A DNA stretch of 64,000 bases, from assembly GCA_964509675.1 (NCBI GenBank), contig CAZDXC010000002.1, forward strand, positions 71,425 through 135,424, given 5' to 3'. Shown here one piece after another: positions 2,936-49,120 of the stretch. A program made the position numbers and the translations under genes. A model generated the notes under the pieces. That model searched no databases. It was not told the origin of the DNA and saw only the letters and a list, made by a program, of their open reading frames with translations. Source of the DNA: Candidatus Woesearchaeota archaeon (lineage in GTDB: Archaea; Nanobdellota; Nanobdellia; Pacearchaeales; GW2011-AR1). Positions within the stretch are counted from its first letter, which is position 1; every line of letters starts with the position of its first letter.

Positions 2936-3886
2936 ATGACTAGTAAAAAGAATGTTTTAATCACTGGTGGAGCTGGTTTTGGAGGAAGTGGTTTGGCCAA
3001 AGAACTTCTGAAAAAAGGACATGATGTAAGAATTATTGATATTGTTGCTCCAAATGAAGCATGGAGACTTAAGGGGGTAATAGATAATGTAGATTACAGA
3101 TGGAAATCTGCACAGGATATTAAAGATGATGATATGAAAGGAATAGATTCTGTTGTTCATATGGCTGCCCAGGCAGATGTTCCAATGGGATTTACAGCCC
3201 CTTTTTGGACTGGTTGGGAAGAAACTATGGGAACAATTCCTGTTTTAGAAGCATGCAGAGGAAAAAATTTGGATAGATTTGTTCTTGCTAGCACAGGAAA
3301 TGTTATTGGCAGGCCTTTGTATCTTCCAATAAATGAGAAACATCCTGTAGTTCCTCATAATCCTTATTCTGCTACAAAAGCAAGCCAGGAATTATTAGCC
3401 CATGCGTACAGAAGATGTTATGATATTCCAACTGCTGTGATGAGAAATGGAATAGTCTATGGGCCAGGAATGAGGAAACAAATTTTCATTTATATTTGGC
3501 TTAAGAATATTCTTAATAACAAGCCCATAACAATAGAGGGGGGAGAACAAACAAGAGACCCCTGTTATGCGAGTGATACAATGGATGCATGGGTTAAAGT
3601 TTTAGAAGCTCCTAGGGAAAAAGTTATCGGAGAGACTTTTCAGGTAAGTAGAGGCAAGGAATGGCATATGAAAGATATTGCTAAAATGTGTATGAAAGTT
3701 GCCGGAAAAGAAGTTCCGATAGTTTATACAGATTACAGACCAGGAGAAAGAGGGCAGAGAGAATGTTTTGATAATTCTTTTGCAGAAAAACAAGTTGGGT
3801 ATAAACCCAAGATAGATTTAGAAGAAGGACTTAAACCAACATGGAAATGGGTTCAGGAACAAGAGGCTTACAATCCATTATCTTAG
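2936..3886 (+). CDS. NAD-dependent sugar epimerase/dehydratase (extended SDR, UDP-glucose 4-epimerase-like)
   Basis: N-terminal Rossmann motif VLITGGAGFGGSGL. Catalytic YSATK (YxxxK). Length 316 aa. Confidence 0.85.
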   Translation: MTSKKNVLITGGAGFGGSGLAKELLKKGHDVRIIDIVAPNEAWRLKGVIDNVDYRWKSAQDIKDDDMKGIDSVVHMAAQADVPMGFTAPFWTGWEETMGTIPVLEACRGKNLDRFVLASTGNVIGRPLYLPINEKHPVVPHNPYSATKASQELLAHAYRRCYDIPTAVMRNGIVYGPGMRKQIFIYIWLKNILNNKPITIEGGEQTRDPCYASDTMDAWVKVLEAPREKVIGETFQVSRGKEWHMKDIAKMCMKVAGKEVPIVYTDYRPGERGQRECFDNSFAEKQVGYKPKIDLEEGLKPTWKWVQEQEAYNPLS

Positions 3887-4003
3887 ATTTCTTAGATACC
3901 TATCTATAAACCAATAGGACAAATAAAAAACGTTTATATATCAAAAAAAATATCTAAGTCGATGCAGGATGAGAACTTAAATATTATTTTTTCATAATTT
4001 CAA

Positions 4004-5545
4004 ATGTATAAAAATACAGAAAATCAGGAAATAAAGGGCTCTCTTAAGATAATTGCGAAAACCTCTTTTTTTATTTTTACAATAATTTTATTCTCAAAAA
4101 TTACATCATATTTTTATAGAATAGTTATTGCTAGAGAATTTGGACCTATGATATATGGTACCTTTTCACTAGCTTTAATAGTTTTTTTGCTTTTTATATC
4201 TCTTTCTTCTTTTGGTTTTTTTGAAGGACTTTTGAGATTTATACCATTATATAGAGGAATTAAAAAAATAAATAACATTAGATATATTTTTAGATTTTCT
4301 GTTTTAATATTAACTGTATCAAGTCTTTTCTTTGGGGGAATCCTCTTTTTTTCTTCAGAATTTATTTCAACCAATATTTTTCATGATTCAAATCTGATAA
4401 TTTTTCTTAGAATATTATCCATAGCAATGCCTTTTTATATTATTAGTTTCGTTTTTCTCTCTTTAATCAGAGGTTTTGAAAAAATAAAAATACATTCTTT
4501 TATATCTGAATTTTTCCAGAATTTAGTTAAATTAGTTTCTCTTTTTTTGCTTATCTTTTTTGGATTTAAGATTAATTCGGTGCCACTTTCTTATTTGATT
4601 GGTATTTTATTAGTTTTTGGAGCATCATATTTTTATTGTAGATACAAATTACCCGGAATTTTTAAAAAATATCTTTTAAAAAAGATCATAAAGAAAAAGA
4701 TAAAAAGAAAATTTCTTTTATATTCTACTCCTTTAATTTTTTTGACTATTCTCTATGATATTTTCGGGTATACGGATTCCTTTGTTATTGGATTATTTAA
4801 GGGTTCTTTTAGTGTAGGTTTATATAATGCTGCTCTTCCAATTGCCTATTTAATGTCATTTGTTCCTTCTTTGTTTTTACAGATTTTTTTTCCAATGATT
4901 ACTAGAGAATTTTCTAAAAATAAAATTGATGTTATAAGAGAATTGAGCAAACAAGTCCAGAAATGGATATTAATTATTAATCTTCCTCTATTCGCACTTA
5001 TGTTTTTATTTTCAGGAGCTTTTATTAATTTGCTTTTTGGTTCTCAATATGTAGGAGCAGAACAGGTTCTTAGAATCTTATCTATTGGTTTTTTATTTTA
5101 TTCTATGGTGCAGATTTTAGAGAATTTGATTTTAGTTAAAGGAAAATCAAAAATATTTTTGATGAACATGATATTTTTAGCCCTTTTCAATTTAATATTA
5201 AATATTTTGCTTATCCCTCTCTATGGAATTGAGGGAGCAGCATTTTCTACAACCATAAGTTATGTACTTCTTGGAATAATTCTTCTTTTTCAAGTTAAAT
5301 ATTATTTAAACATAATCCCCCTAAGAAGAAAAATGTTCCAAATATTAATTTCAGTAGCAATTCCTTCTATAATTTTATTTTATATCCGACAATTCTTCCA
5401 AATTAATCTTGTTTCAATAATTCTCCTTGTTTTCTTTTTTATTTTACTATATACTCTGCTAATATTAATAACAAAAAGTTTAGATAAGAATGATTTTGAG
5501 ATATTAAAAATATTTAAAAGAAAGTTAACAGGAAGTCCAAAATGA
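4004..5545 (+). CDS. Oligosaccharide/polysaccharide flippase (Wzx/AglR-like, MOP superfamily)
   Basis: 513 aa, ~12-14 TM helices, polysaccharide-biosynthesis-protein-like N-terminus. Located in the glycosylation island. Confidence 0.7.
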   Translation: MYKNTENQEIKGSLKIIAKTSFFIFTIILFSKITSYFYRIVIAREFGPMIYGTFSLALIVFLLFISLSSFGFFEGLLRFIPLYRGIKKINNIRYIFRFSVLILTVSSLFFGGILFFSSEFISTNIFHDSNLIIFLRILSIAMPFYIISFVFLSLIRGFEKIKIHSFISEFFQNLVKLVSLFLLIFFGFKINSVPLSYLIGILLVFGASYFYCRYKLPGIFKKYLLKKIIKKKIKRKFLLYSTPLIFLTILYDIFGYTDSFVIGLFKGSFSVGLYNAALPIAYLMSFVPSLFLQIFFPMITREFSKNKIDVIRELSKQVQKWILIINLPLFALMFLFSGAFINLLFGSQYVGAEQVLRILSIGFLFYSMVQILENLILVKGKSKIFLMNMIFLALFNLILNILLIPLYGIEGAAFSTTISYVLLGIILLFQVKYYLNIIPLRRKMFQILISVAIPSIILFYIRQFFQINLVSIILLVFFFILLYTLLILITKSLDKNDFEILKIFKRKLTGSPK

Positions 5546-6720
5546 AGAATAAAAAAAGAATAATTTTTTATTATGCCTCTACACCTTCAATTATGATCCA
5601 TAGAATTGCAAAAAGATTTCATAAAAAAGGTTATGAAACTATTCTTTTTGCGATGTGCGAAAAAGACAGGTTTGATTATCAATTTTATTCAGAAGCTTTT
5701 GACAAAATAGAATGTTCAAATTTTCAATTTTTTAAACTTAGTTTAAAGACTCCTTTTTATTTCTTAAAGAGAGGATTTTCTTTAATGAAATTTTTAATCT
5801 CAATGAAATTTGTTAAGCCTTATATTGTAATGGGTATTTCTGGAAATAATTGGCAATTAAAATTAATCCATAAATATTTTCTTAAGAAATACCCTTTTAT
5901 TTATTTTCCTTATGACATTCTTTCTATTATTCTAAATGAAAATAAACCCCCCCAATTTGAAATAAATGCAGAAAAATATTGTTTTGAAAATTCTGATGGA
6001 ATAATACATAAAGGAGATCCTGATGAATTAAAATTTTTTAATAATAAAATGAATCTATCTAAGTTTCAACTAAGTTTTTTACCTTATTGTTCAAATGAGT
6101 CAATAATTCCAATAAATAAAAATAAATTTTCTTCTCAAAATAAGGAAATTCATTTAGTTTATATTGGTTTTTTTTATAATGATCCCCACTCTCTAAAAAA
6201 ATTTATTAAATGTTTTAAGATAATATTACAACAAAAAATTCATATTCATATTTATACTAGAGTTAGTCATATCCCAGAAAAAGAGGAAGAAAAATATATA
6301 CATGATTTTTTCAAACCTCTTTTGGATAATAAATATTTCCATTTACATAAATTAGTTGGGAAAAAAGAAACAATTCAAGAAATTTCCAGATATGATTTTG
6401 GTTTTTGGCCGATTCATGCAGTTACAAAAGAATCAAAAATTGCAACAGGGAATAAACTTGCAGGATTTTTAGAAGCAGGATTACCATTTATTTATGACCA
6501 AGATTTGGAATTTGTAGATAAGCTTATGAAAAAATGGGGGATGGATAACCTTTCTTATAATGAAAAAAATCTTAAGACTTTGAAAAAGAGATTAATGAAT
6601 CTAAATTATAAAAATTTATTAAAAAAATTAGAAAAGGCAAGAAAAAATTTTGATCTTGATAAGAATTTTTCAAGATTAGAGAAATTTATAGCAAGGATTG
6701 TAGAAAGAAAAAACTTTTAA
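5542..6720 (+). CDS. Hypothetical protein, possible divergent GT-B fold glycosyltransferase
   Basis: C-terminal segment GNKLAGFLEAGLPFI resembles the E-x7-E region of GT4/GT1 C-terminal domains. Otherwise no clear motif. Confidence 0.35.
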   Translation: MKNKKRIIFYYASTPSIMIHRIAKRFHKKGYETILFAMCEKDRFDYQFYSEAFDKIECSNFQFFKLSLKTPFYFLKRGFSLMKFLISMKFVKPYIVMGISGNNWQLKLIHKYFLKKYPFIYFPYDILSIILNENKPPQFEINAEKYCFENSDGIIHKGDPDELKFFNNKMNLSKFQLSFLPYCSNESIIPINKNKFSSQNKEIHLVYIGFFYNDPHSLKKFIKCFKIILQQKIHIHIYTRVSHIPEKEEEKYIHDFFKPLLDNKYFHLHKLVGKKETIQEISRYDFGFWPIHAVTKESKIATGNKLAGFLEAGLPFIYDQDLEFVDKLMKKWGMDNLSYNEKNLKTLKKRLMNLNYKNLLKKLEKARKNFDLDKNFSRLEKFIARIVERKNF

Positions 6721-6737
6721 AAAGAAATAAATAATCA

Positions 6738-7400
6738 TTGAAGATGAAATCCCTTACAAAAAATAAAAGATTTAGAGAGAAATATGGTTTTGAGAAACCC
6801 AAAGATTTAAAATCAAGAATAAAAATATGGATAGAGAGAGTTTTTTTCTTAGAATTCTTACATTTACATATTAAAAAACAACACCCCAAACCCCATGTAA
6901 GATTCTTAAAAACTTTTTTTGGAAATAGAGACTTGATTGGATGTGAAATAGGCATATATAAAGGAGAAAATTCAGAACAACTTTTAAAAAATTTGAATAT
7001 CCAAAAATTGTATTTAATTGACCCTTATATTGAGTATAAAGATTATGATATTGAAAATGAGTTTACAATACAGATACCCTTTAAAAAAATTGAACCTGTT
7101 GCACATAAAAAATTATCAAGATATAAAGATAAAATAATTTTTATTAAAGAAAAATCTTCTGATGCCCTTTCAAAAATTCCTTCTAACTTAGATTTTGTTT
7201 ATATAGATGGAAATCATGCCTATAAATTTGTAAAAGAAGATATTGAAAATTATTACAAGAAAATAAGGAAAGGAGGAATCCTTTCAGGGCATGATATTGA
7301 CCACCCAGAAATAGCAAGAGCAGTTATAGAATTTATTCAAAAAGAAAAGATAAACAATTTTCAGGTTGATTTTCAAGATTGGTGGATCAAAAAAAAATAA
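6738..7400 (+). CDS. Class I SAM-dependent O-methyltransferase (Methyltransf_24 / TylF-CmcI-like)
   Basis: LIGCEIGIYKGENS (motif I) and YIDGNHAY, characteristic of macrocin-O-MT/cephalosporin hydroxylase-like methyltransferases. Confidence 0.6.
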   Translation: MKMKSLTKNKRFREKYGFEKPKDLKSRIKIWIERVFFLEFLHLHIKKQHPKPHVRFLKTFFGNRDLIGCEIGIYKGENSEQLLKNLNIQKLYLIDPYIEYKDYDIENEFTIQIPFKKIEPVAHKKLSRYKDKIIFIKEKSSDALSKIPSNLDFVYIDGNHAYKFVKEDIENYYKKIRKGGILSGHDIDHPEIARAVIEFIQKEKINNFQVDFQDWWIKKK

Positions 7401-7469
7401 AAAATATATTATTTATAATACAATATTTTTTAAAGTCTTTTCTTTTTAAAGACATCAAAAAGAAATCCC

Positions 7470-8645
7470 ATGAAAAAGATATCTGAATTAGCAAAAAGAC
7501 TAGAAGGGCAAAAAATGTTTCAGATACTTTCAAAAGCTAAAGAACTAGAAAGAAGTGGAAAAGATATAATCCATTTTGAGATAGGGGACCCAGATTTTGA
7601 AACCCCTGAAAATGTTATTGAGGGAGCTAGAGAATCACTTAGAAAAGGAGAGACACATTATACATCTTCATGGGGATTACTTGAATTAAGGGTAGCTGCT
7701 GCAGATGTCACATTAAGGTCAAGAGGATTTAAACCAGAACTAAATCAGTTACTAGTCACCCCTGGGGCGAATTATCAGATAAGGCTCACATTGGGGTGTG
7801 CTGTAAATCCAGGAGAAGAAGTAATTCTATCAGACCCCTCTTTTGTAAGTTATCCTTCCCTAATAAATGCTATTGGATTAAAACCAATAAAAATTCCTCT
7901 TTATGAAGAAAATGGATTTAGACTAAATCCAAAAGATATAGAGAAAGCAATAACAGATAAAACAAGAATGATTATTATAAATTCTCCACATAATCCTACG
8001 GGAGCAGTTATGAAGGAAGAGGAAATTAAAAAAACATACGAAATAGCAAAGAAATATGATATTTATTTGCTTAGTGATGAGGTGTACGCAAGGTTGCTAT
8101 ATAAAGATGATAAGACTTACTTTTCTTCTCCAAGCAAATATGATCAATGTAAAGAAAGAACAATAATTGTAAATGGTTTTAGTAAATCTTATGCAATGAC
8201 TGGGTGGAGACTCGGGGTTGTTACAGGGCCCCCTGATTTAATTGAAAAGATGAATTTATTACTTGAATCAGAAATTTCTTGTGTTTCATCATTTATTCAA
8301 AGAGCAGGGATTGAAGCACTACATGGAAGTCCTGAGAAAACTTTCGAAATGAGAGAAGAATATAGAAAAAGGAGAGACGCAATTGTAAAAGGATTAAATA
8401 GCTTACCCAATATAAGATGTATGGAACCTAAGGGAGCCTTTTATGCTTTTCCCAACATAAAAAAAACTGGATTCTCAAGCGAAGATTTTGCAAAATTTAT
8501 GCTAGAAGAAGCGAGTGTTGCTTTATGTCCCGGAAATTTTTTTGGAGAAATGGGAGAAGGATATATTCGATTATGTTATGCAAACTCATTAGATAACATT
8601 AATAGAGGAATTGATAGAATGAGGGGGGTCCTCAAAAATATATAG
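7470..8645 (+). CDS. PLP-dependent aminotransferase, class I/II (AspC-like)
   Basis: NSPHNPTGAV and SKSYAMTGWRLG (PLP-lysine region) motifs. 391 aa. Confidence 0.85.
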   Translation: MKKISELAKRLEGQKMFQILSKAKELERSGKDIIHFEIGDPDFETPENVIEGARESLRKGETHYTSSWGLLELRVAAADVTLRSRGFKPELNQLLVTPGANYQIRLTLGCAVNPGEEVILSDPSFVSYPSLINAIGLKPIKIPLYEENGFRLNPKDIEKAITDKTRMIIINSPHNPTGAVMKEEEIKKTYEIAKKYDIYLLSDEVYARLLYKDDKTYFSSPSKYDQCKERTIIVNGFSKSYAMTGWRLGVVTGPPDLIEKMNLLLESEISCVSSFIQRAGIEALHGSPEKTFEMREEYRKRRDAIVKGLNSLPNIRCMEPKGAFYAFPNIKKTGFSSEDFAKFMLEEASVALCPGNFFGEMGEGYIRLCYANSLDNINRGIDRMRGVLKNI

Positions 8646-8690
8646 TGCTTAATAATTAAATTTAAAAACTTTTTTATAATCACATTTTAG

Positions 8691-10457
8691 ATGGAAATAT
8701 CTGATTATGTTGCCAATTTTATAGCAAATCAAAAGGTAAAACATATTTTTTTAATCACTGGTGGAGCTGTTTTTAATCTAGTTGATGCAATTGCAAGAAA
8801 TAATTCTTTAGAATATATCTGTACAGAACATGAACAAGCAGCAGCCATGGCTGCAGATGCATATTCAAGAGTAACTAAAAATTTGGGAGTGGCAGTATCA
8901 ACTAGTGGGCCAGGGGCGACCAATTTGATAACCGGTGTCTGTTGTTCTTGGTATGATTCAATTCCAACAATGTTTTTCTCGGGGCAAGTGTCTACTCCTA
9001 AATTGAAAGGGAAAAGTAAAATTAGACAATTTGGATTTCAAGAGACTGATGTTTCTTCTTTATTTAAGCCAATAACAAAGTATTCAAAAACTATAAAAGA
9101 TCCTCAGAAAATAAGATATGAATTAGAAAAAGCAAATTATCTCGCAAGAAATGGAAGACCCGGACCTATACTTCTTGATTTACCAAATGATATTCAAAGA
9201 GCAGAAATAAACCCAAAAGAGTTAATTGGATACCGCCCCCATAAAATTGAGAAGGATTTAAATAAATTAGAAGGATTAGTGGAAAAAACAACATATCTTT
9301 TAGAAAATTCAGAAAGGCCAATAATCATATTTGGAGGAGGAATAAGATTAGCAAATGTAGAATCTGAAGCGAGAGAATTGATAGAGAAATTAAATTTTCC
9401 AGCATTAATGACTTGGGCAACTAAAGATCTTTTTCCATATACTCATCCTCTTGTGATAGAAGGATTTGGTGTTTCTTCTGAAAGAACAGGAAATTTTGCA
9501 ATACAAAATTCAGATTTGGCATTGGCTTTAGGAACAAGATTAGATACTCATGAAACAAGTGACCTCACGACCTTTGCTCGTAATGCAAAGAAAATAATAG
9601 TAGATGTAGATAAATATGAATTAGAAAAATATGAAAAAAGGGGAATGAAGCCAGATTTATTGATAAACTGTGATCTTAGAGATTTTTTAAGAATTTTAAG
9701 TAAGAAGAATATAAAAATAAATAATATTTCTAAATGGATAAATAAGATTAATGAATGGAAGAAAAATTATCCTATTTGCCTTCCAGAATATTACAATCAA
9801 AAAGGAAATGTAAATCCTTATGTATTTATGGATGAACTATCAAAACAATCAAAAGAGGGAGATATTATAATTCCTGATGCTGGTGGGAACCTTACTTGGA
9901 CAATGCAAGGGTTCAGGGCAAAAAGGAACCAAAGACTTTTTTCTGCTTTTAATCATTCGCCAATGGGATATTCTCTTCCTGCAAGTATAGGTGCATGTTT
10001 TGCATCTGGGAAAAAATCAGTAACTTGTATTATTGGAGATGGAGGAATACAAATGAATATACATGAATTAGCGACTGCAAAACATCATAATCTCCCAATT
10101 AAAATCTTCCTATTCAATAATCAGGGTTATGGCATAATCCGTCAGACTCTTGAAAATTATATGAACTCAAGATATGAGGCAGTTGATGAAAAATCTGCAG
10201 TTCCAATGCCGAATTTAATAAGAATCGCAAATGCATATGGAATTCGTACTTTAAGCATAAAAGACAATAGGGAAATACAAAGGGGGGTAAAAGAAACTTT
10301 GAATTACAAAGGGGGGCCAATATTATGTGATGTAAACATTCATCCTTATCAAAAAATAGAGCCTAAATTAATCTCCAGCAGACCCTTGGAAGAATGTTCT
10401 CCAGAGCTTCCAAGAGAGGTTTTCTTAAAAGAGATGATTATTAAACCCCTTGGTTAA
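8691..10457 (+). CDS. Thiamine-pyrophosphate-dependent enzyme, acetolactate-synthase large-subunit-like
   Basis: N-terminal TPP-Pyr domain (ITGGAV...TSGPGATNLITG). C-terminal TPP-binding motif IGDGGIQMNIHELATA...NNQGYG. 588 aa with a central domain. Confidence 0.8.
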   Translation: MEISDYVANFIANQKVKHIFLITGGAVFNLVDAIARNNSLEYICTEHEQAAAMAADAYSRVTKNLGVAVSTSGPGATNLITGVCCSWYDSIPTMFFSGQVSTPKLKGKSKIRQFGFQETDVSSLFKPITKYSKTIKDPQKIRYELEKANYLARNGRPGPILLDLPNDIQRAEINPKELIGYRPHKIEKDLNKLEGLVEKTTYLLENSERPIIIFGGGIRLANVESEARELIEKLNFPALMTWATKDLFPYTHPLVIEGFGVSSERTGNFAIQNSDLALALGTRLDTHETSDLTTFARNAKKIIVDVDKYELEKYEKRGMKPDLLINCDLRDFLRILSKKNIKINNISKWINKINEWKKNYPICLPEYYNQKGNVNPYVFMDELSKQSKEGDIIIPDAGGNLTWTMQGFRAKRNQRLFSAFNHSPMGYSLPASIGACFASGKKSVTCIIGDGGIQMNIHELATAKHHNLPIKIFLFNNQGYGIIRQTLENYMNSRYEAVDEKSAVPMPNLIRIANAYGIRTLSIKDNREIQRGVKETLNYKGGPILCDVNIHPYQKIEPKLISSRPLEECSPELPREVFLKEMIIKPLG

Positions 10458-10465
10458 TTTAAGAA

Positions 10466-11938: not shown

Positions 11939-11948
11939 GAGAGAATTC

Positions 11949-12935: not shown

Positions 12936-12995
12936 AAACGATTAATTATATAAATATTTTAAATTTGACAATAAATAAGGATTTAATATAATAAG

Positions 12996-14042: not shown

Positions 14043-14043
14043 A

Positions 14044-15677: not shown

Positions 15678-15737
15678 TATAAAAATCTTTCTTGTTAATA
15701 AAGAAGATTTAAATAGGGGTTTATTTTTTGAATTTTC

Positions 15738-16808: not shown

Positions 16809-16810
16809 AA

Positions 16811-17572: not shown

Positions 17573-17588
17573 TTTTTTTCTTTTTATT

Positions 17589-31057: not shown

Positions 31058-31117
31058 TCTCAAATATATATCTTTAAATAATAATCTTTTTATACCACTT
31101 CTTTTTTTGAAGAGAAG

Positions 31118-33530: not shown

Positions 33531-33531
33531 A

Positions 33532-34062: not shown

Positions 34063-34086
34063 AAACTTATGAATTAATATTTTTGG

Positions 34087-41945: not shown

Positions 41946-41984
41946 TAAAATTATTGCTTTTCTGCCAATAAAAACCTTTTGATA

Positions 41985-43493
41985 TTATTGTTTAGATAAA
42001 ATTTTCTTCGGTAAAAAATCTCTTAAATGCCCAAAAACAGCCTTTATCCCTCTTAAATTAAATTTGAGATCATTCAAATTTTGTATATTTTTTGTTCTTT
42101 GAATAATATAACTTGGGGTTAAAAATATTGTGTAGATTTTTCCGCAAATATTTGCAATTTCCTTGGCTCTTTCAGAATCAGAGTGAATTTGATCTTTTTC
42201 ATCAGAATTTTTAGTTTTCAAAACAGGTTCCTTCATATCATATCTTTCATATTCTTCAGGAGAAAATAAAAATTCATTTTTCTCTTTTGCTTCTTTCCAT
42301 AAAAGAGTTCCTGGATAAGGAACAAGGACTGTAGCCTGAAGAAGGTCTGCCTTGCCTTTTTGCATTAATTCTTTTGCTAAATTAAAGGTTCTCAGTGCAT
42401 CCTCTTTATTCTCCCAAGGATATCCCACAATCATTGTCAAATGAACAGTTAATCCTGCTTTTTTTGCCATTTCACATCCATTAAGTATATCTTCAACTTT
42501 TATTCCTTTATTCAGTTTGTCTAGTGTTTTCTGATTTGCACTTTCTAATCCAAATTTCAACAATCTAAATCCTGCTTTTTTCATCAAATTGAAATCTTCT
42601 TGTTTTAATGCTCCAAATCTCATGTTACAGGAATATTTTATTTTTTTATTATATCTCCTTTCTATCAGTCCATTGCATAATTCTGTAAGCCAGTTTCCTG
42701 TCATCAACGTTCCAGAATCATCAAAGATTTCTTTTGCATTATATTTGTCAATTAACATTCCTATTTCATCAAGAACATTTTCAACACTCCTGACTCTGAA
42801 TTTTGGAAAAAGGGTCGGCCATGCACAGAATTTGCATTTTCCCCACCAACAATCTCTCCCAGACATTATATAAAAAAATGGTTTCCCTTGTAAGTTATAC
42901 TCTTTTTCATACAATTTCCATTTTGTTAATTCTCTGTCAATAAAAGGAAGTTCATCCAAATTATGTTTCAGGTTAAATTTTCCAGAATTGATTATCTTAT
43001 TATTTTTTCGATAATATATTCCTTCAGGAATTCTTTTTTTATTTCCTGAAAGCCAATCACAAAGAGCAGAAAGACTAAAATCAAAATCTCCCCCTTGCAA
43101 GACAAAATCCACTCTGGAATTTTCAAGACTTTCCTTTGGAAGAAAAGTAACATGGTCCCCCATTATTACTATTTTCATTTCAGGGAATTTCTCTTTTAAT
43201 TTGTCAATAATTCTCCAATGTTGCTTTATTACAGGGGTTTTGGTTTCAAAAGCAAATAATTCTGGTTTTTCATTTTCAATTGTTTTTGTAAATTCTTCCC
43301 ATGAAATATTTTCTGCTATGCAATCCTTCCAAATTACTTCATTTCCATTTTTTTTTAAAAGAGTTGCCGCGCTTCCTAATACGACAGGAAATAAATAAGA
43401 AGGATTTGAAAACCATTGAAATTGCCTGTTTTGGCTTAACAATGCAACTCCTTTCTCTGATTTTAGCGGAGGATATCCTATAAGAATTTTCAT
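41985..43493 (-). CDS. Cobalamin-binding (class B) radical SAM enzyme
   Basis: N-terminal B12-like domain (IVIMGDHVT). SGRDCWWGKCKFCAW Cys cluster. ESANQ and VGYPWE radical SAM core motifs. Confidence 0.75.
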   Translation of the reverse strand: MKILIGYPPLKSEKGVALLSQNRQFQWFSNPSYLFPVVLGSAATLLKKNGNEVIWKDCIAENISWEEFTKTIENEKPELFAFETKTPVIKQHWRIIDKLKEKFPEMKIVIMGDHVTFLPKESLENSRVDFVLQGGDFDFSLSALCDWLSGNKKRIPEGIYYRKNNKIINSGKFNLKHNLDELPFIDRELTKWKLYEKEYNLQGKPFFYIMSGRDCWWGKCKFCAWPTLFPKFRVRSVENVLDEIGMLIDKYNAKEIFDDSGTLMTGNWLTELCNGLIERRYNKKIKYSCNMRFGALKQEDFNLMKKAGFRLLKFGLESANQKTLDKLNKGIKVEDILNGCEMAKKAGLTVHLTMIVGYPWENKEDALRTFNLAKELMQKGKADLLQATVLVPYPGTLLWKEAKEKNEFLFSPEEYERYDMKEPVLKTKNSDEKDQIHSDSERAKEIANICGKIYTIFLTPSYIIQRTKNIQNLNDLKFNLRGIKAVFGHLRDFLPKKILSKQ

Positions 43494-43525
43494 ATCAATT
43501 CTTAAAAAAAGTCCTTTAAATAAAT

Positions 43526-44428
43526 TTATCTACCTTTTATATATCCAAAAATCATTCCTGCACCATAACTTATGTGAATTATTGGATAAATAAATGGAAG
43601 AACAAAGAATGCTATGAAATCTTTATTCTTTACAGAATCATAAAAAGAAAAAGAAATTGCAAGAAAAAAATATACAAGAAGGGGGATAAATATTGTTTTT
43701 TTCACATAAAAAATTATTGGCAGAATAATAAGACTTATCAAATAAATTACAAATAAACTTGGAATGAGAAAAAAGGGATTTTTTAATGTATCGCTTAAAT
43801 TTTCTTTTAAAGGACGTGCCTTCCCATAATTGAATATCTGTTTTATCAATCCTCCTACATTTTCTCTTCTTCTATGATATAAAACAATGTTTGGGGTGTA
43901 AGCTACCTTAAATCCCTGTTCTTTAACATCTGCAATAAATTTAGGGTCTTCCCCCGGAAACAGGCTTGGATCAAATTTAACTTTTTCTAAAACTGCTCTT
44001 TTGCATATTAAATTGGCAGAAGTAAGAGCTGTTTCATCAACATTTAAGGCTTCTTTTTTTGAACTATACCTATTTGAGAGTTTCCATGCGCCGAATTTAG
44101 AACCAAGAGCATATCCCGAGATTTTAGCAAAACCCTCTTCGTTTTTTGGAGTTAGCTGGGGGCCGCCGACAACATCAATGTTCGGGTGTTTTTCAAAAAA
44201 TTCCTTTACTTTCTTTAAATAATCGGTCTCTAAGATTGCATCATCATCTAAAAAAATAATAATATCCCCTTTTGCTTTTTCAAATCCCCTATTTCTGTTT
44301 TCAGAGGGGTTTTCACCTTTTTCAACAATAACTTCGTATTGTTTTTTTGGGAAATCCAAATTTTCTATGCTGCCCAATATCTCTGCATCTCTGTAAGGAG
44401 CAACAGGGATTACTAATGAGAATTTCAT
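43526..44428 (-). CDS. GT2 family glycosyltransferase with C-terminal TM anchor
   Basis: FSLVIPVAP...IIIFLDDDA (DxD). C-terminal hydrophobic helices. Confidence 0.75.
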   Translation of the reverse strand: MKFSLVIPVAPYRDAEILGSIENLDFPKKQYEVIVEKGENPSENRNRGFEKAKGDIIIFLDDDAILETDYLKKVKEFFEKHPNIDVVGGPQLTPKNEEGFAKISGYALGSKFGAWKLSNRYSSKKEALNVDETALTSANLICKRAVLEKVKFDPSLFPGEDPKFIADVKEQGFKVAYTPNIVLYHRRRENVGGLIKQIFNYGKARPLKENLSDTLKNPFFLIPSLFVIYLISLIILPIIFYVKKTIFIPLLVYFFLAISFSFYDSVKNKDFIAFFVLPFIYPIIHISYGAGMIFGYIKGR

Positions 44429-44464
44429 TAATTTAAAAATGAGAACTTTCTTATAAAGATTTCT

Positions 44465-45244
44465 TTAATCTATCTTTAATTTTTTTGGAAGTTTTCTATA
44501 AGCTCTTACTATGAACCTAAAAGGAGAATGGATGAGCCTTAATCTGACGGATGAAGCAAACATTCTTAGAGGAGTTTTTTTTAAATTGATTTTTGAGCCG
44601 ACTTTGTCATGCCAAACAGTTGGAATTGATTTTATTCTTGCATTGCTTTCTTTTCTTAAACAATATAATAGTGCTATATCAAAACCCCAATTACTCGTTA
44701 CTAATTTTTTAAGATTTTTTTCAATAATGTTTCTTTTGAATAGTTTTGCTCCGCATTGAGTATCTCTAAAGGGAAAAAAGAAAAGAGCTCTGACAATTAG
44801 GTTATATCCTCTGCTCATAAATCTTCTAAGAAAACTCTGCTTCGGAGATATTATGCTTTTTTTGTGCCATCTGTCTGCGATAATTCCGTCATAATTTTTA
44901 ATATTTTTAATTAAATCATAAAAAGATCCTGGAGAAGTAGACATATCCGCATCAACATAACCTATAAATTCATTTTTTCTTTTTAATGCATCCTTAAACC
45001 CCTCAATTATCGCAAAACCCTTTCCTCCCTGTTTAAAGTTTAGGTATTTTATTTCAGGATATTTTTTTGAAATTTCTCTTACAACTTCTTTTGTTTTGTC
45101 TGTTGTGTTGTTTATTACAACTATAATTTCAAAATCTGCTATTTCCTTTTTTTCTTTCTTTTCTGTAAAAAAATCCCCATAACCTTCCAAACTTTTTCCT
45201 ATCCTCTTTTCTTCATTATGAGCAGGAATTATTATTGAAATCAT
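44465..45244 (-). CDS. GT2 family glycosyltransferase (dolichyl-phosphate hexosyltransferase, Dpm1/AglJ-like)
   Basis: MISIIIPAHNEEKRI. YVDADMSTSPG. DTQCGAKLF motifs of Dpm1-like GT2. Confidence 0.75.
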   Translation of the reverse strand: MISIIIPAHNEEKRIGKSLEGYGDFFTEKKEKKEIADFEIIVVINNTTDKTKEVVREISKKYPEIKYLNFKQGGKGFAIIEGFKDALKRKNEFIGYVDADMSTSPGSFYDLIKNIKNYDGIIADRWHKKSIISPKQSFLRRFMSRGYNLIVRALFFFPFRDTQCGAKLFKRNIIEKNLKKLVTSNWGFDIALLYCLRKESNARIKSIPTVWHDKVGSKINLKKTPLRMFASSVRLRLIHSPFRFIVRAYRKLPKKLKID

Positions 45245-45297
45245 TTATCTTAATCTTCTTGATAAGATTAAAAATTTAATTATATTATAATATCTAA

Positions 45298-46314
45298 TTA
45301 AGAGAACATCATAGAAGGAATTTTTAGAATATCTACCTTGAAAATAATAAAACCAATTATTATGATTAAAATCTGAAAGGCATTTATGAGATATACTACT
45401 TCTCTTTCATATGCTTTTTTGCTAGGTTTTATTTTTTTTAATATGCGGATTGCCAAATGTTCTAACCCATAAATTTTATTATAAGGAACTTCCAAACTTC
45501 CATCTTTATTCACTTTGGCAAAACTCTCTTTTTTTAGTCTTCCTTTTAACTTAAGAATTGTTTCAATTATATACGGAATAAAAAAGAAAATTGCAATTTT
45601 TTCAATATTTCCCAAAATTGCAATGATTGCAATAAGCCCCCCAAGGCTGTAAGTCAAAATGTCTCCAGGAAATACCTTTGCGGGATATTTATTGAATATA
45701 TAAAAAGCTGTTAAACATGCTACCATAACCAGTCCAATAATGCTCAACCACCTGTTTCCAATAATATAATTTACTAAAGAGAGGCTTATTAGAATTATTG
45801 CTCCTTGGCTTGCCTCCAATCCATTATATCCTGCTAAAAAATTAAAAGTTGCACTGGCTCCCACAACTCCAAAAACAATTAATATCACAGGATATATTAA
45901 CTCAAGATTTGTTCCTATTATTGTTTGCCCTGCATTTATAACTATTAGTGGAAGTGAGGCAAAGATTAAGAAAATAATTCTAAGAGGTTTGTTGAGTCCT
46001 ATTTTCCATCCAAGAATATCATCTGTAAAGCCAATAAAAGAAATTATTAATATCACACTTAAGAGGGAAAATATTTCCATAATATCATCATAAGATTTAA
46101 AATAAAATGTTTTTACAGCAATATAAGCCAATAGCCCGATAATAAATCCCATAATGACACATATTCCTCCGGCTTCGGCAATTTTTTCGCCACTAGTTTT
46201 ATTTATGTCTTTTCCCGTAAGTCCTACCTTTTTTGCTCTTTTTATCCAAAAGGGCAGGGAAAAAAAAGAAACCAAAAAACCTAAAAAAAGCGGAACTAAT
46301 AGTAAAATTTGCAT
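45298..46314 (-). CDS. aglH: UDP-GlcNAc:dolichyl-phosphate GlcNAc-1-phosphate transferase-like (GPT/MraY family, AglH-like)
   Basis: Polytopic membrane protein with FTDDILGW (DDxxD). NFLAGYNGLEASQG. VFPGDILTYSLG motifs of the MraY/WecA/GPT family. Confidence 0.7.
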   Translation of the reverse strand: MQILLLVPLFLGFLVSFFSLPFWIKRAKKVGLTGKDINKTSGEKIAEAGGICVIMGFIIGLLAYIAVKTFYFKSYDDIMEIFSLLSVILIISFIGFTDDILGWKIGLNKPLRIIFLIFASLPLIVINAGQTIIGTNLELIYPVILIVFGVVGASATFNFLAGYNGLEASQGAIILISLSLVNYIIGNRWLSIIGLVMVACLTAFYIFNKYPAKVFPGDILTYSLGGLIAIIAILGNIEKIAIFFFIPYIIETILKLKGRLKKESFAKVNKDGSLEVPYNKIYGLEHLAIRILKKIKPSKKAYEREVVYLINAFQILIIIIGFIIFKVDILKIPSMMFS

Positions 46315-46315
46315 A

Positions 46316-49120
46316 TTAATACTCTCCAGGTATTACTTTCTGAAACTCTAATGGATATTCTGTGCTTAAATAGGTAGAATTTAATTCCATATTAAGAGGA
46401 TAATTTATCTGCCAAATCTTGACAGGCCCCTGGAATCCCTGATAATAAACAAAATCTCCAACATTAAGTCCTTGTTTTGTGAGATCATCAATTATTAAAT
46501 TTTGCTCTGTATGCACTAATTTGAAATAATCTGATTGTTCATTGAACAAATAAAGCTTTACTAATTCAGAATGAATTGTCTTTTCACTTAAATAAAATGC
46601 TGCCCCCTTTTTGTCAAGACTTAATTTGCCGTTTTGAGAATTATCTAATTTTGGATACACAAAGATTCCTGCATCTAATCCCTTTTTAAAATCATGCAAT
46701 TTGTTGTTAATGTAGACATATCTTAAAGGCATTTGGTATTGTTGTTGTTTATATACAAAGAAAACCATTGGCTGAAGTATCTCTTCATTTTTATTTTCCC
46801 TCAGTGCAACTGCAGCAACAATAGTTTTTTTTCTGGGCAATAAAATTTCTTTTCCATCTTGGTTTAGTATGATGTCCTTATCAGTTATGCTCCCAACAGG
46901 GTATATGTAACTTGTTTCATTATTTGTTTCCCTTGTTTGTGACGGGTCTAAAAGGGCAGTTGGAATCCATGAATAACGATCATAATTTCCATTGGAACCA
47001 ATACTAGAAAAAGCAGGATATTTTCCTATATCTGTTGAATCAATTAATAAATGTGTTCCATTATGAGCATAAAGAAAATCAAGTGCCATCTTTTCATCTT
47101 CTCCGGTAAGTACTAATCTTCCCATAAAATAATTCCAATAACCGATAGCATTTCCCCCATCCAAAATTGTGGCTCTTTCTCCAATACTTTGAACCCAGTA
47201 CCCGTAGTCCCACCAGTGCGCAAAAACTGCATTTGTAGGAGTATTGTCTCTCACCCATGCCATTGCTTTTTGCCATTGCCACTGGTACAAACCAGGGGCA
47301 AAATTTTCAGCCATGTTTTTATCACTTTGGTAATATGCCCAAACAGTGAAGATAGATGCAATTAGTATAATTAAGACAGCAATTCCGACAAAAATTTTGT
47401 TACTTTCTTCTTTTTCACGGAGATATTTTTGAGAACTCTTTGTAATTAAGAATGCAATTGCAATCGGACTTACTGCTCCCAAGACCATTATTAATCTTAT
47501 CGCCCCTCTTGCAGCAACAACCATCATTGTAAAAATGATAAAATAAAATATATATGAAAAATTAAATTCTTTGAAAATTGAAAATTTTTCTCCTCTGTGT
47601 CTTTTGAAGTAGATGTATCCAAAGGCAAAGATAAATGCGAGTGTTCCGCCAAAATAAACAAATAAACTCAAACCACTTTCCCCATTAAGAATGCTCCCCG
47701 AGGAATATTTACTGAAGATTAAACTCAATAAGAAAATTATATAACCCAATGTTAGAATTATCTTTTCTTTTTTAGCAAGGGGTTTTATCATATGATAAAA
47801 TAAATAAACTGAACCAATAAAAAATAACCAAAAATATAAGGGTATATTCAATACAACAGGGCCAAATTCTCCTACCCAGTCATTCATAAAGTATGGCTGT
47901 TTATTCTCTGCAACAGTTACTCCAAATCTGCTTGGAGTGAATGGTTCTACTGCATGAGATATAACATCTTTAGCCATTCCAGGAACGAAAGAAATTCCAA
48001 ATGCAATTGAAGATAGAATTATTAATAATCCTGAAGCAACAATGATGGAAATAATCTGTCTTGGAAGTTTTATTTTTTTTAATTTGTCATTTAGGTTAAA
48101 TATCCTCTTTTTGAATAATAAAAAATCAATAAACAAAATAAAAAATATCATAAAAGCTAATCCTGTAGAACTTGAAGTAGCTAAACTTTTAATTGTATAT
48201 CTTGTTGAAAAAGGCATCATAATTAGAATTGATGAAACGAGCCATAAAGAATAAAAAAAGAATCTTTTTTTATTAACTTTCCCAAGTAAAAAAGCAAATA
48301 AAACTGCTCCTGCAATCCCCAAAAAAGCAAAAGTCACTCCCCCCCAAACTAATCCTAATGCGCCCGTGAATATTCCTGCCAATACACTAAAAATTATTCC
48401 TCTTTTTAATTTTCCAGAGGTATAAGCTTCCAAGAAAAAATAAAATGCCATAAATAAGAAAAAGAAAGCTGCAGATTCTTTTTCTGGAATTCCTGCAATT
48501 GTTCTTGAAAGAAGTGAAGGAACCAAAATGAACAGGGCAGTTGCAATCAATGCAATTATGTTTGCTATTTTTTTATCTTCTTTATAGAATAATTTACGGG
48601 CAAATAAGAAAAATGCAATTCCTGTCAAAACTGCCATAACTACAGGAAAGATAATTGAGGCGTAGGTTACTGTAACATTTTTATCAAAAAAAGATAAAAA
48701 TTTGTAGAGAGAACTCATCATATATGGGAGCAATCTCATCTCTCCTGCAGTATTTACAGCATCACACGCATTCCCAGAACAAATCTGCGCCAATGGAACA
48801 TATCTCATTGTATCTAAAACAAATAATTTCCCATGTTCTACTATGTATTTCGCCCATCGCAGAAATAAAAATGGGTCTAAATCAGGTCCTAATGTCCATG
48901 TTCCTGTTGTGATGTCTTTCAATTTTGGAATATTTCTTGTTCTTATATAAACACTAACAGAAAGAATAATTGTCAGAATAACATAATAAATCCAATTTCC
49001 ACTTTTTTTAAAAAAATCAATTATTTTTTTCTTTCTTTTTTCTATTTCTTCTCCAGAAAAAACAGAATCTTTTTTTTCTGAACTTACTAATCCTATCTCT
49101 TCCACCATAAAAAACTCCAA
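46316..49120 (-). CDS. aglB: Archaeal oligosaccharyltransferase AglB (STT3 family)
   Basis: 934 aa. N-terminal 13-TM region with DLDPF loop. Canonical WWDYG motif (FAHWWDYGYW). C-terminal soluble domain. Confidence 0.85.
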   Translation of the reverse strand: MEFFMVEEIGLVSSEKKDSVFSGEEIEKRKKKIIDFFKKSGNWIYYVILTIILSVSVYIRTRNIPKLKDITTGTWTLGPDLDPFLFLRWAKYIVEHGKLFVLDTMRYVPLAQICSGNACDAVNTAGEMRLLPYMMSSLYKFLSFFDKNVTVTYASIIFPVVMAVLTGIAFFLFARKLFYKEDKKIANIIALIATALFILVPSLLSRTIAGIPEKESAAFFFLFMAFYFFLEAYTSGKLKRGIIFSVLAGIFTGALGLVWGGVTFAFLGIAGAVLFAFLLGKVNKKRFFFYSLWLVSSILIMMPFSTRYTIKSLATSSSTGLAFMIFFILFIDFLLFKKRIFNLNDKLKKIKLPRQIISIIVASGLLIILSSIAFGISFVPGMAKDVISHAVEPFTPSRFGVTVAENKQPYFMNDWVGEFGPVVLNIPLYFWLFFIGSVYLFYHMIKPLAKKEKIILTLGYIIFLLSLIFSKYSSGSILNGESGLSLFVYFGGTLAFIFAFGYIYFKRHRGEKFSIFKEFNFSYIFYFIIFTMMVVAARGAIRLIMVLGAVSPIAIAFLITKSSQKYLREKEESNKIFVGIAVLIILIASIFTVWAYYQSDKNMAENFAPGLYQWQWQKAMAWVRDNTPTNAVFAHWWDYGYWVQSIGERATILDGGNAIGYWNYFMGRLVLTGEDEKMALDFLYAHNGTHLLIDSTDIGKYPAFSSIGSNGNYDRYSWIPTALLDPSQTRETNNETSYIYPVGSITDKDIILNQDGKEILLPRKKTIVAAVALRENKNEEILQPMVFFVYKQQQYQMPLRYVYINNKLHDFKKGLDAGIFVYPKLDNSQNGKLSLDKKGAAFYLSEKTIHSELVKLYLFNEQSDYFKLVHTEQNLIIDDLTKQGLNVGDFVYYQGFQGPVKIWQINYPLNMELNSTYLSTEYPLEFQKVIPGEY

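Follow-up and report, generated by a model that had tools for sequence, protein, structure and literature searches.

This report concerns a glycosylation island at positions 2936-49120 of a 64,000-nucleotide stretch of contig CAZDXC010000002.1 from a Candidatus Woesearchaeota archaeon (the whole stretch is hereafter the window), and in particular the radical S-adenosylmethionine (SAM) enzymes encoded within it. The window holds 77 open reading frames (ORFs) of at least 100 amino acids; Pfam was run on every plausible gene from 102 to 53917, gene families were assigned with Pfam and the curated cut-offs of NCBIfam, and a phmmer sweep of all ORFs of the window returned exactly nine radical SAM genes. 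All nine lie within the island, at the exact coordinates listed by an initial annotation of this DNA, as the ORF list and Pfam both confirm. They make up 9 of its roughly 40 genes, a density far above the 1-2% of genes that we estimate radical SAM enzymes to occupy in small archaeal genomes. The island is flanked on one side by SecF and SecD and on the other by SpoIIM, IF-2B, prefoldin, SecY and ribosomal proteins. The GC content of the window is about 29%, and its SecY is 72-93% identical to the SecY of metagenome-assembled genomes (MAGs) labelled Pacearchaeota, Woesearchaeota or Nanoarchaeota, which bears out the DPANN archaeon that had been guessed from the letters. Exact window proteins are found also in the Logan assemblies SRR14802572 and SRR14802574.

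The locus is a mosaic, in which a conserved core (34087-49120) stands beside exchangeable cassettes (2936-27330) and a heptose module (29663-34062). Glycan genes are indeed present as first described, but the single continuous glycan locus of that description is interrupted by QueC and a deoxyribosyltransferase-like ORF. Intergenic gaps are mostly below 120 nt and none is above about 235 nt; no cobalamin riboswitch, other RNA or tRNA gene was found in the window. Seven of the nine radical SAM genes lie in the cassettes, not in the core.

Nine radical SAM proteins and their nearest families

The nine genes are as follows.

10466-11938, plus strand: class-B-type radical SAM enzyme B12_1 (PF02310 and PF04055; CX3CX2C)
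12996-14042, plus strand: radical SAM enzyme with SPASM/twitch domain, SPASM_1 (PF04055 1.2e-21; PF13186 8.4e-8)
14044-14892, plus strand: radical SAM enzyme rSAM_2, cysteine-rich C-terminus (PF04055 5.5e-12; no SPASM profile match)
18905-20326, plus strand: class-B-type radical SAM enzyme B12_2 (PF02310 2.4e-20; PF04055 2e-23)
21672-22808, plus strand: radical SAM/SPASM enzyme SPASM_3 (PF13186 6.2e-11; PF04055 7e-10)
22805-23794, plus strand: radical SAM enzyme with partial SPASM (twitch-like), SPASM_4 (PF04055; PF13186 2e-4, partial)
25792-27330, plus strand: class-B-type radical SAM enzyme B12_3 (PF02310 1.6e-11; PF04055 2.7e-17)
37194-38648, minus strand: class-B-type radical SAM enzyme B12_4 (PF02310 1.3e-23; PF04055 4.1e-24)
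41985-43493, minus strand: class-B-type radical SAM enzyme B12_5, CX4CX2C (PF04055; PF02310 marginal, 33.1 bits against a cut-off of 32.1)

The initial annotation had staked its reading on profile searches finding B12-binding and radical SAM domains in these proteins, and Pfam recovers them. PF02310 and PF04055 occur together in all five proteins predicted to bind B12, and PF13186 occurs in three of the four predicted to be SPASM/twitch enzymes. The fourth, 14044-14892, matches PF04055 alone, with no match to PF13186 even at E<=5; it carries seven cysteines in its last 75 residues, all within residues 208-276, and it reads as SPASM/twitch-like by sequence, not by hidden Markov model. The three PF13186 proteins have only four to five C-terminal cysteines and look twitch-like rather than like full seven-cysteine SPASM proteins.

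The cluster-binding cysteine triad is present in nine of nine. It is spaced CX3CX2C in four of the class-B proteins and CX4CX2C (CWWGKCKFC; Cys 215, 220 and 223) in 41985-43493, a spacing found in all 120 homologues listed for that protein (P0001-P0120) and kept in most of its 49-58%-identity homologues from other taxa; the 10466-11938 family, unlike it, is strictly CX3CX2C. Pairwise identity among the five class-B paralogues is only 24-31%, and they are old, distinct families rather than recent duplicates. The other four genes form two tightly packed pairs: the start codon of rSAM_2 lies one base past the stop codon of SPASM_1 (14042/14044), and SPASM_3 shares the last 4 nt of its 3' end with SPASM_4.

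All nine proteins fall short of every curated NCBIfam cut-off. The top models of the class-B proteins (HpnJ, BchE, ApyD and an MJ_1487-type model) score 87-198 bits against cut-offs of 251-750, and no class-B protein reaches the cut-off for HpnJ, BchE, HpnR/HpnP, PhpK, BzaD, QCMT/MJ_0865, KedN5, TsrM or the ladderane radical SAM enzyme. HpnJ is the top-scoring model for both 41985-43493 (178 bits, cut-off 578) and 10466-11938, and 18905-20326 reaches about 142 bits on its best models, BchE and HpnJ, which is far under the cut-offs. For the SPASM proteins the top models are the tungsten-cofactor maturase, prokaryotic viperin, WgkB and MoaA, all far below threshold. These NCBIfam scores, with those against the PDB, stand in for a phylogeny against GenK, Fom3, GrsA and HpnP and do not separate methylases from rearrangases.

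The same scores bear on a scenario named by the initial annotation itself, in which the genes encode unrelated housekeeping enzymes (MiaB/RimO, MoaA, QueE, CofG/H, PflA, HemN) that happen to lie nearby. Weak, sub-threshold matches to MiaB/RimO, MoaA, HemN and QueE models do occur, and QueC lies within the locus; every such score, however, falls 5- to 15-fold under its curated cut-off (MoaA, for example, 62 against 284-325, and MiaB/RimO 24-49 against 251), and no protein of the nine reaches the cut-off for MiaB/RimO/MtaB, MoaA, QueE, HemN/HemW, NrdG, PflA or lipoyl/biotin synthase. Further, synteny with glycosyltransferases is kept across distant taxa and fusions to glycosyltransferase family 2 (GT2) domains exist, as described below. 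Since no curated cut-off is reached and the synteny statistics agree, housekeeping roles are taken as excluded and the scenario as effectively refuted; the chance left to it is very small.

AlphaFold models were compared with known structures for two proteins, one of each kind. Among known structures, the model of 41985-43493 comes closest to AprD4, a cobalamin-independent 1,2-diol dehydratase whose substrate is an aminoglycoside sugar, and that of 22805-23794 comes closest to BlsE, so that the top structural neighbours of both predicted folds are sugar-modifying radical SAM enzymes. AprD4 has been grouped apart, as 'unrelated', from the B12-dependent enzymes (PMC12931638). CysS (24.4), RimO, MiaB, TokK (18.6) and OxsB (18.0) are also among the structural neighbours in this comparison. 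By sequence, the PDB neighbours of 37194-38648 are AprD4 (1e-26), QCMT, OxsB and TokK, and those of 12996-14042 are BlsE, GDGT-MAS, BtrN and DesII, all weak.

A rival possibility is that the enzymes modify peptides or proteins. They might carry out maturation of the kind seen in ribosomally synthesized and post-translationally modified peptides (RiPPs), or S-layer or pilin proteins might undergo C-methylation, thioether formation or epimerisation before their glycosylation. In favour of this, 37194-38648 scores best on the RiPP enzyme ApyD (198 bits) and also matches rSAM_ocin_1, 22805-23794 scores best on the peptide maturases WgkB, StsB and PapB, and QCMT, a protein glutamine C-methylase, is among the top structural matches of 41985-43493. 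All of these scores are well under the family cut-offs, however, and the fusions seen in relatives join GT2 and flippase-like domains. A RiPP cluster in particular was judged unlikely: gaps between genes are short, and no RiPP recognition element, protease or ABC exporter occurs among the ORFs of at least 100 amino acids, shorter ORFs, and hence a possible short precursor-peptide gene, lying outside that scan. Peptide or protein substrates are thus decidedly unlikely.

A conserved core, and fusions in relatives

Eleven co-directional minus-strand genes form the core string, which runs from 49120 (AglB) to 35669 (a methyltransferase) with gaps of at most 53 nt or overlaps; a PMT_2-type GT-C gene converges on it. 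Their order is AglB, GPT, two GT2 genes, the radical SAM gene 41985-43493, LPG_synthase_TM, a nucleotidyltransferase (NTase)-like gene, a PF01663 phosphodiesterase, the radical SAM gene 37194-38648, an epimerase and the methyltransferase. Besides the two radical SAM genes listed above, the core contains the following.

46316-49120, minus strand: AglB/STT3 oligosaccharyltransferase (PF02516 1e-12 and PF21436)
45298-46314, minus strand: AglH-type polyprenyl-phosphate GlcNAc-1-P transferase, GPT (PF00953 7.5e-28)
44465-45244, minus strand: GT2 resembling dolichyl-phosphate mannose (Dol-P-Man) synthase (PF00535 1.7e-21; PDB 5mlz 1.6e-10)
43526-44428, minus strand: GT2 with transmembrane segments at its C-terminus, immediately upstream of B12_5 (PF13641 and PF00535)
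40998-41945, minus strand: LPG_synthase_TM (MprF flippase-like) membrane protein (PF03706 9.1e-41)
39739-41001, minus strand: conserved 420-residue protein with an NTase-like GGYSKGEG...DYD motif read from the sequence (no profile match)
38645-39739, minus strand: alkaline-phosphatase-superfamily phosphodiesterase (PF01663 2e-20)
36193-37221, minus strand: NAD-dependent epimerase/dehydratase (PF01370 9.8e-42)
35669-36193, minus strand: class-I SAM methyltransferase at the end of the core string (PF13489 1.2e-9)
34087-35682, plus strand: PMT_2-type GT-C glycosyltransferase, ArnT/PMT-like (PF13231 9.2e-13; 13 hydrophobic segments)

The gene at 39739-41001 shares a few nucleotides with each of its neighbours, the flippase-like gene and the phosphodiesterase gene. 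The motif of its product is like that of Pol-beta-type nucleotidyltransferases, and the protein may add or process a phospho-linked substituent. The GT2 at 43526-44428 has no informative PDB match.

Two comparisons speak to the conservation of this string. In the first, anchored on SecY, 80 GTDB loci were collected and gene order was read in those long enough; these share the order SecY, EMC3-like, prefoldin, IF-2B, SpoIIM, AglB, GPT, GT2, radical SAM. The full core is seen in three relatives, on contigs of 777 kb (L083), 652 kb (L084) and 182 kb, among which the class-B radical SAM gene at the second position varies; L084 carries three class-B genes and a GT2::radical SAM fusion. AglB orthologs, 61-81% identical, occupy the same position in relatives. 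For 41985-43493, more than 120 cluster representatives were found at 71-85% identity, all from Pacearchaeota-type sources, and it is the most conserved radical SAM enzyme of the locus, about as conserved as SecY.

In the second comparison, a metagenome scan for homologues of 41985-43493 yielded at least 572 relatives, of which 80 loci were analysed, homologues of at least 59% identity being counted as close and those of 49-58% as distant. Among close loci that extend far enough, 11 of 12 have a PMT_2 gene no more than 10 kb away, a further class-B radical SAM gene, the NTase-like gene and the phosphodiesterase are each present in 10 of 12, and AglB lies upstream in 9 of 12; a PF03706 flippase-like gene is found within 5 kb of the radical SAM gene in 16 of 20. 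The distant homologues come from other taxa, as their mean GC of 43% indicates, and even there the gene immediately upstream, in the same orientation, is a GT2 in 27 of 30 loci, and a pair of GT2 genes occurs in 15 of 23. At one of the distant loci (L155) a PMT_2 GT-C, a GT4, a GFO-type oxidoreductase, an epimerase/dehydratase and a further GT2 are encoded as well. Homologues of 37194-38648 (70-81% identical) adjoin the phosphodiesterase in four relatives (L084, L106, L116 and L123). The PF03706 protein (40998-41945) and the PF13231 protein (34087-35682) are encoded with GT2 enzymes, a set that recurs in L155 and in a further relative, L090.

Three independent domain fusions in relatives, each confirmed by Pfam, join radical SAM domains to such partners. 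The first (L084:15238-17100) comprises a GT2 domain (residues 10-207), a radical SAM domain (293-458) and a SPASM domain (535-593), and its radical SAM part aligns with 22805-23794 along the full length at 32% identity. The second (P0234), 45% identical to 10466-11938, has a B12-binding domain (6-116), a radical SAM domain (176-344) and a GT2 domain (514-627), and its locus includes an epimerase, a methyltransferase, another class-B radical SAM gene and a split transketolase. The third (P0336) runs radical SAM, SPASM, LPG_synthase_TM (360-490) and lies at L090 in the series B12-binding radical SAM, GT2, fusion, LPG_synthase_TM, radical SAM, PMT_2/TPR, which reads as the same gene grammar as the window core. 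Conserved synteny and the three fusions together support a functional tie between the radical SAM genes and the glycan genes. The L090 locus is bracketed by two genes for 23S_rRNA_IVP (four-helix-bundle) proteins (5151-5510 and 12707-13072), after an ORF of 1703 amino acids; these genes may mark a mobile or variable cassette.

The third fusion also touches the question of whether the enzymes alter lipid rather than sugar, with dolichol or isoprenoid membrane lipids from the host as substrates for methylation, cyclisation, cross-linking or saturation of the kind carried out by GrsA/GrsB, Tes/GDGT-MAS and the methylases of glycerol dialkyl glycerol tetraethers (GDGTs). Such an activity would explain the glycan neighbours, because both pathways act on membrane lipids. 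GrsA and GrsB are B12-domain radical SAM enzymes that work on lipid chains (PMC13459092). All five class-B proteins match TIGR04072, 'lipid biosynthesis B12-binding/radical SAM', at 78-129 bits, and one member of the family carries a membrane domain, LPG_synthase_TM, as a fusion. These scores are nevertheless far under the cut-off of 360 and under the HpnJ and BchE scores, two independent fusions join GT2 catalytic domains and not lipid enzymes, and the strongest conserved neighbour, in the distant loci as counted above, is a GT2. No prenyltransferase, GGGP/DGGGP synthase or geranylgeranyl reductase is encoded in the window, and DPANN archaea are not generally known to synthesise lipids. A lipid substrate is therefore unlikely, if less so than a peptide.

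Exchangeable cassettes and a putative heptose module

The remaining island genes are these.

2936-3886, plus strand: NAD-dependent sugar epimerase/dehydratase (PF01370 1.5e-42)
4004-5545, plus strand: Wzx-like polysaccharide flippase (PF01943 3.9e-20; 16 hydrophobic segments)
5542-6720, plus strand: soluble 392-residue protein without assigned function (no Pfam or NCBIfam match)
6738-7400, plus strand: class-I SAM methyltransferase, Methyltransf_24 (PF13578 2.4e-15)
7470-8645, plus strand: class I/II pyridoxal-phosphate aminotransferase, Asp-aminotransferase-like (PF00155 1.3e-69; under all NCBIfam cut-offs)
8691-10457, plus strand: three-domain thiamine-diphosphate (ThDP) enzyme, acetolactate-synthase-large-subunit-like (PF02775, PF02776, PF00205; TIGR00118 401 bits against a cut-off of 538)
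11865-12935, plus strand: APH/CotS-like kinase, weak assignment (PF01636 E=0.002; APH gene at the equivalent place in L087)
14889-15788, minus strand: CE4 polysaccharide deacetylase (PF01522 1.1e-9)
15738-16808, plus strand: GT4 glycosyltransferase (PF00534 4.8e-22)
16772-17572, plus strand: class-I SAM methyltransferase (PF08241 1.1e-15)
17589-18161, minus strand: class-I SAM methyltransferase, weak assignment (PF08241 9e-6)
18158-18814, minus strand: class-I SAM methyltransferase (PF13489 1.5e-13)
20323-21504, minus strand: GT4 glycosyltransferase (PF00534 7.4e-36)
23791-25695, minus strand: sugar-1-phosphate nucleotidyltransferase::GT4 fusion (PF00483 3.4e-31 and PF00534 2.2e-19)
27334-28047, minus strand: QueC, 7-cyano-7-deazaguanine synthase (PF06508 1.9e-49)
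28279-29199, plus strand: GT2 glycosyltransferase (PF00535 7.8e-17)
29183-29602, minus strand: nucleoside 2-deoxyribosyltransferase-like protein (PF05014 2.3e-12)
29663-31057, plus strand: GT9 heptosyltransferase::NUDIX hydrolase fusion (PF01075 5.6e-18 and PF00293 2.1e-18)
31118-32524, plus strand: HldE-like bifunctional heptose-7-P kinase/heptose-1-P adenylyltransferase (NF008454 426 bits against a cut-off of 521)
32514-33530, plus strand: GSU2086-family protein, deoxyhypusine-synthase-like fold (NF052581 320 bits, over the cut-off of 250)
33532-34062, plus strand: GmhB-like heptose 1,7-bisphosphate phosphatase (NF006506 171 bits against a cut-off of 178)

Most of the glycan inventory first read from the sequence stands, namely the Wzx-like flippase, AglB, GPT, GT9, GT-C, two epimerases and CE4 deacetylase, together with three GT4 genes, one of them fused to the NTP-transferase, where three to four had been counted. 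GT2 genes number three (28279, 43526 and 44465) instead of two, and only five class-I SAM methyltransferases are detectable where at least six had been claimed.

The variable region opens with the epimerase, the Wzx-like flippase and the 392-residue protein. A methyltransferase, the aminotransferase, the ThDP enzyme, radical SAM 10466, the APH-like kinase and the radical SAM genes 12996 and 14044 follow, then CE4, GT4, three methyltransferases, radical SAM 18905 and GT4, and finally radical SAM 21672 and 22805, the NTP-transferase::GT4 fusion and radical SAM 25792. Over 4001-6000, which holds the Wzx-like flippase and the 392-residue gene, GC falls to 24% from about 29-32% elsewhere, a dip typical of horizontally exchanged O-antigen-like segments.

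Several of these arrangements recur in related genomes. The aminotransferase/ThDP/radical SAM/APH arrangement of window positions 7470-12935 is found at 7015-13384 of L087 (Pacearchaeota), a locus with four class-B and two other radical SAM genes in 21 kb. In L089 (GCA_028711165.1), SPASM_3-like and SPASM_4-like (73%) genes are followed by the NTP-transferase::GT4 fusion, a B12_3-like gene and then GT2 and heptose genes, and two further class-B genes adjoin Wzx; in L104 the identities are 70% for B12_3, 58% for the NTP::GT4 fusion and 65% for SPASM_3. With four to six radical SAM genes per roughly 21 kb in L087, L089, L095, L104 and L086, radical-SAM-dense glycan loci are a trait of the lineage and not of this genome alone, and the window is to that extent less exceptional than the initial annotation held; with nine it is the richest locus seen, and also the longest stretch examined.

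The 10466-11938 family reaches beyond archaea, at 60-72% identity in Pacearchaeota and 42-50% in bacteria (Thermodesulfobacteriota, Chloroflexota, Brocadiales, Omnitrophica and Elusimicrobiota). On a Brocadiales contig its gene accompanies an NDP-sugar nucleotidyltransferase, an epimerase and further radical SAM genes, and in the bacterial relative L088 it is paired with a split transketolase instead of the acetolactate-synthase-like ThDP enzyme. For the aminotransferase/ThDP/radical SAM cassette, a YerE-like, ThDP-dependent C2-branching of a keto-sugar is a possible role, which we take as an analogy. A phosphonate pathway (of the aminoethylphosphonate or fosfomycin kind) was judged unlikely for this cassette and rejected: the window has no phosphoenolpyruvate-mutase domain, and 8691-10457, unlike a phosphonopyruvate decarboxylase, has all three acetolactate-synthase-type domains.

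The HldE-like, GmhB-like and GT9::NUDIX genes look like a bacterial-type ADP-heptose module in an archaeon. The window has no SIS/GmhA isomerase gene; a GSU2086-family gene sits between HldE and GmhB, and its product could be a stand-in isomerase. In relatives a different heptose set stands at a similar position (L083:19029-21467, L089:15389-20984) and comprises SIS, GHMP kinase, HAD and NTP-transferase genes, beside PMT_2/GT2 in L083. This set looks like a GDP-heptose route, which suggests a pathway replacement between the window and its relatives.

QueC, of the preQ0/archaeosine pathway, and the deoxyribosyltransferase-like ORF sit inside the glycan locus on the opposite strand, with no QueD or QueE gene near QueC. 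QueC is probably a housekeeping gene outside the glycan pathway, and the pair may be housekeeping insertions or may be linked to a deazapurine or nucleotide-sugar function. Beyond the island, the SecD homologue (869-2419) carries a PDZ domain at residues 38-87, close to its N-terminus (PF13180, PF17820 and PF00595), which seems unusual for SecD. Two public contigs, DATKUW010000020.1 (labelled 'Bacillota bacterium') and JAFCDN010000065.1 (labelled 'Candidatus Iainarchaeum'), each encode a SecY 75% identical to the Pacearchaeota-type SecY of the window and are probably mis-binned or mislabelled.

A proposed pathway, its precedents and its significance

Taken together, domain content, synteny, fusions and structural neighbours make it reasonably probable that the locus is the main surface-glycosylation super-locus of this archaeon, and that its nine radical SAM enzymes tailor activated sugars, linked to polyprenyl phosphate or to nucleotides, before export and attachment. 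In the proposed sequence, GPT and the two GT2 enzymes would load sugars onto dolichyl phosphate at the cytoplasmic face, where 41985-43493 would remodel the lipid-linked sugar through hydrogen-atom abstraction by a 5'-deoxyadenosyl radical; the downstream enzyme 37194-38648 would join in this remodelling with the epimerase, the phosphodiesterase, the NTase-like protein and the methyltransferase. The LPG_synthase_TM protein, in an assumed flippase role, would then flip the product, and AglB, the PMT_2 GT-C or both would transfer it to surface proteins or glycans. The cassette enzymes, with the NTase::GT4 fusion, the GT4 enzymes, the deacetylase, the methyltransferases, the aminotransferase and the ThDP enzyme, probably tailor further sugars of a Wzx-exported glycan. 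By analogy with DesII, the NTase::GT4 fusion in the SPASM_3/SPASM_4/B12_3 cassette suggests nucleoside-diphosphate-sugar substrates.

Several points weigh against this reading. The assignment of substrates depends on guilt by association, and the presence of QueC and the deoxyribosyltransferase-like gene within the locus shows that co-location alone is no proof of function. The top structural matches share only 16-17% identity; the runners-up are the methylases TsrM, QCMT and CysS for 41985-43493 and the peptide maturases SkfB, SuiB and anSME for 22805-23794. Given that these act on peptides or small molecules and that identity is low, the fold does not fix the substrate class. The match of 44465-45244 to the Dol-P-Man synthase of P. 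furiosus (residues 2-208) is weak, a flippase role of PF03706 for polyprenyl-linked sugars is an assumption, and the LPG_synthase_TM fusion would suit a lipid substrate no less than a glycolipid one.

The chemistry is open to more than one reading. The initial annotation had pictured a heavily C-methylated or otherwise radically tailored product; heavy C-methylation is not established and is one option only, as the class-B proteins score best on HpnJ, BchE and ApyD. HpnJ and BchE are non-methylases, and in a similarity network these two and the ladderane enzyme, likewise a non-methylase, share the main cluster with the methylases Fom3, MoeK5 and GenK (PMC9204698). Such similarity does not assign the reaction type. 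C-methylation is possible, and is not favoured over dehydration or deoxygenation, ring contraction, oxidation, epimerisation or decarboxylation.

Similarly, a cobalamin demand of the class-B proteins is plausible and not secure: their B12-binding domains pass the Pfam thresholds, but AprD4, the top structural neighbour of 41985-43493, shows that such a domain can be free of the cofactor. Any cobalamin in use would probably have to come from outside the cell. Pathways for cofactors, cobalamin among them, are reported as rarely complete in Woesearchaeota (PMC8421398), and a survey of DPANN archaea reports cobalamin genes for Altiarchaeota, Diapherotrites and Micrarchaeota (PMC8407392).

Known systems offer partial likenesses. 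Radical SAM enzymes are known to act on lipid-linked sugars in the HpnI, HpnK and HpnJ pathway and in the calditol synthase Cds (PMC13459092). There, as in Cds of Sulfolobus, a GT2 glycosylates a lipid and a radical SAM enzyme remodels the hexose by a proposed ring contraction, and the GT2-radical SAM adjacency seen here is alike; one relative, on the 182-kb contig, even has a CE4 deacetylase and a GT2 beside its radical SAM gene. The differences are the HpnJ score of 41985-43493, far short of the cut-off, its CX4CX2C motif, the absence of hopanoid or GDGT genes, a carrier that is presumably dolichyl phosphate in an AglB/GT-C protein-glycosylation setting, and a core module of the window without a deacetylase, the CE4 gene lying 27 kb away.

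Enzymes of the AprD4, GenK, DesII, BtrN and BlsE type dehydrate, C-methylate, deaminate, oxidise or decarboxylate sugars. Like the present proteins, these and GenD1 and Fms7 are radical SAM enzymes that carry in some cases an N-terminal Rossmann (B12-type) domain and in others twitch or SPASM domains, but they act on soluble aminoglycoside, nucleoside or TDP-sugar intermediates in actinomycetes, whereas the genes here lie in an archaeal primary surface-glycosylation locus, fused or adjacent to GT2 and flippase-like genes. The ArnC/ArnD/ArnEF/ArnT and GtrA/GtrB/GtrC systems combine a polyprenyl-phosphate GT2, cytoplasmic tailoring, a small flippase and a PMT_2/ArnT GT-C, and candidates for all these gene types are present and syntenic here; the predicted tailoring enzyme is, however, a radical SAM enzyme rather than a hydrolase, and the flippase candidate is an MprF-type PF03706 protein. 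Archaeal agl clusters share the clustering of AglB, AglH-type GPT, GT2, GT4, Wzx-like flippase, methyltransferases and epimerases, and the window has such a clustered AglB N-glycosylation set (PF02516 with PF21436, PF00953, GT2, GT4 and a PF01943 flippase candidate). It differs from them in its nine radical SAM genes and in a putative ADP-heptose/GT9 module typical of bacterial lipopolysaccharide cores.

A bolder proposal, which we regard as doubtful, is that GT2, GT2, the CX4CX2C radical SAM enzyme, PF03706 and PMT_2 constitute an unrecognised three-component type of glycosylation in which a polyprenyl-phosphate sugar, before being flipped, has its carbon skeleton rebuilt by the radical SAM enzyme. 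This module is often extended by a second class-B radical SAM gene, the NTase-like gene and the phosphodiesterase, and the change of skeleton could be a ring contraction to a cyclitol or carbasugar, a deoxygenation or a C-methyl branch. Were this proposal true, Pacearchaeota and the taxa with the distant version would display non-canonical, hydrolase-resistant sugars on their surface proteins or glycans, and reduced genomes would become dependent on host-derived cobalamin.

Sugars tailored by radical SAM enzymes are already familiar from antibiotic pathways and from the head groups of two lipids. What appears to be new is the setting in primary, AglB-linked surface glycosylation, the density of nine genes, the conserved GT2-radical SAM-flippase-GT-C module with its signature CX4CX2C enzyme, and the natural GT2::radical SAM and radical SAM::flippase-like fusions. 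A full-text literature search returned no paper linking radical SAM enzymes with DPANN, Pacearchaeota, archaeal N-glycans or AglB; 'radical SAM' is mentioned in none of the papers listed for archaeal N-glycans and AglB, the reviews of archaeal N-glycosylation and of B12-dependent radical SAM enzymes searched do not cover the combination, and the literature found on Pacearchaeota and radical SAM concerns the lipid enzyme Tes. The initial statement that no such product is described agrees with the literature searched, in which no description was found.

The implications extend beyond this genome. Several large, uncharacterised radical SAM families, which extend into many bacterial phyla, gain a substrate hypothesis, and since the partner GT2 enzymes are adjacent or fused, the substrates can be made enzymatically. 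If cobalamin is truly used, the locus predicts a hand-off of the vitamin from host to symbiont. DPANN archaea are host-dependent and their genomes measure about 1 Mb, and yet this reduced-genome lineage has retained, beside its oligosaccharyltransferase, up to nine Fe-S radical enzymes in a locus exceeding 40 kb. Given that retention, and the SecY-like conservation of one of these enzymes, unusual surface-sugar chemistry is probably central to the lifestyle of these organisms, with possible roles in host attachment, recognition or the evasion of viruses.

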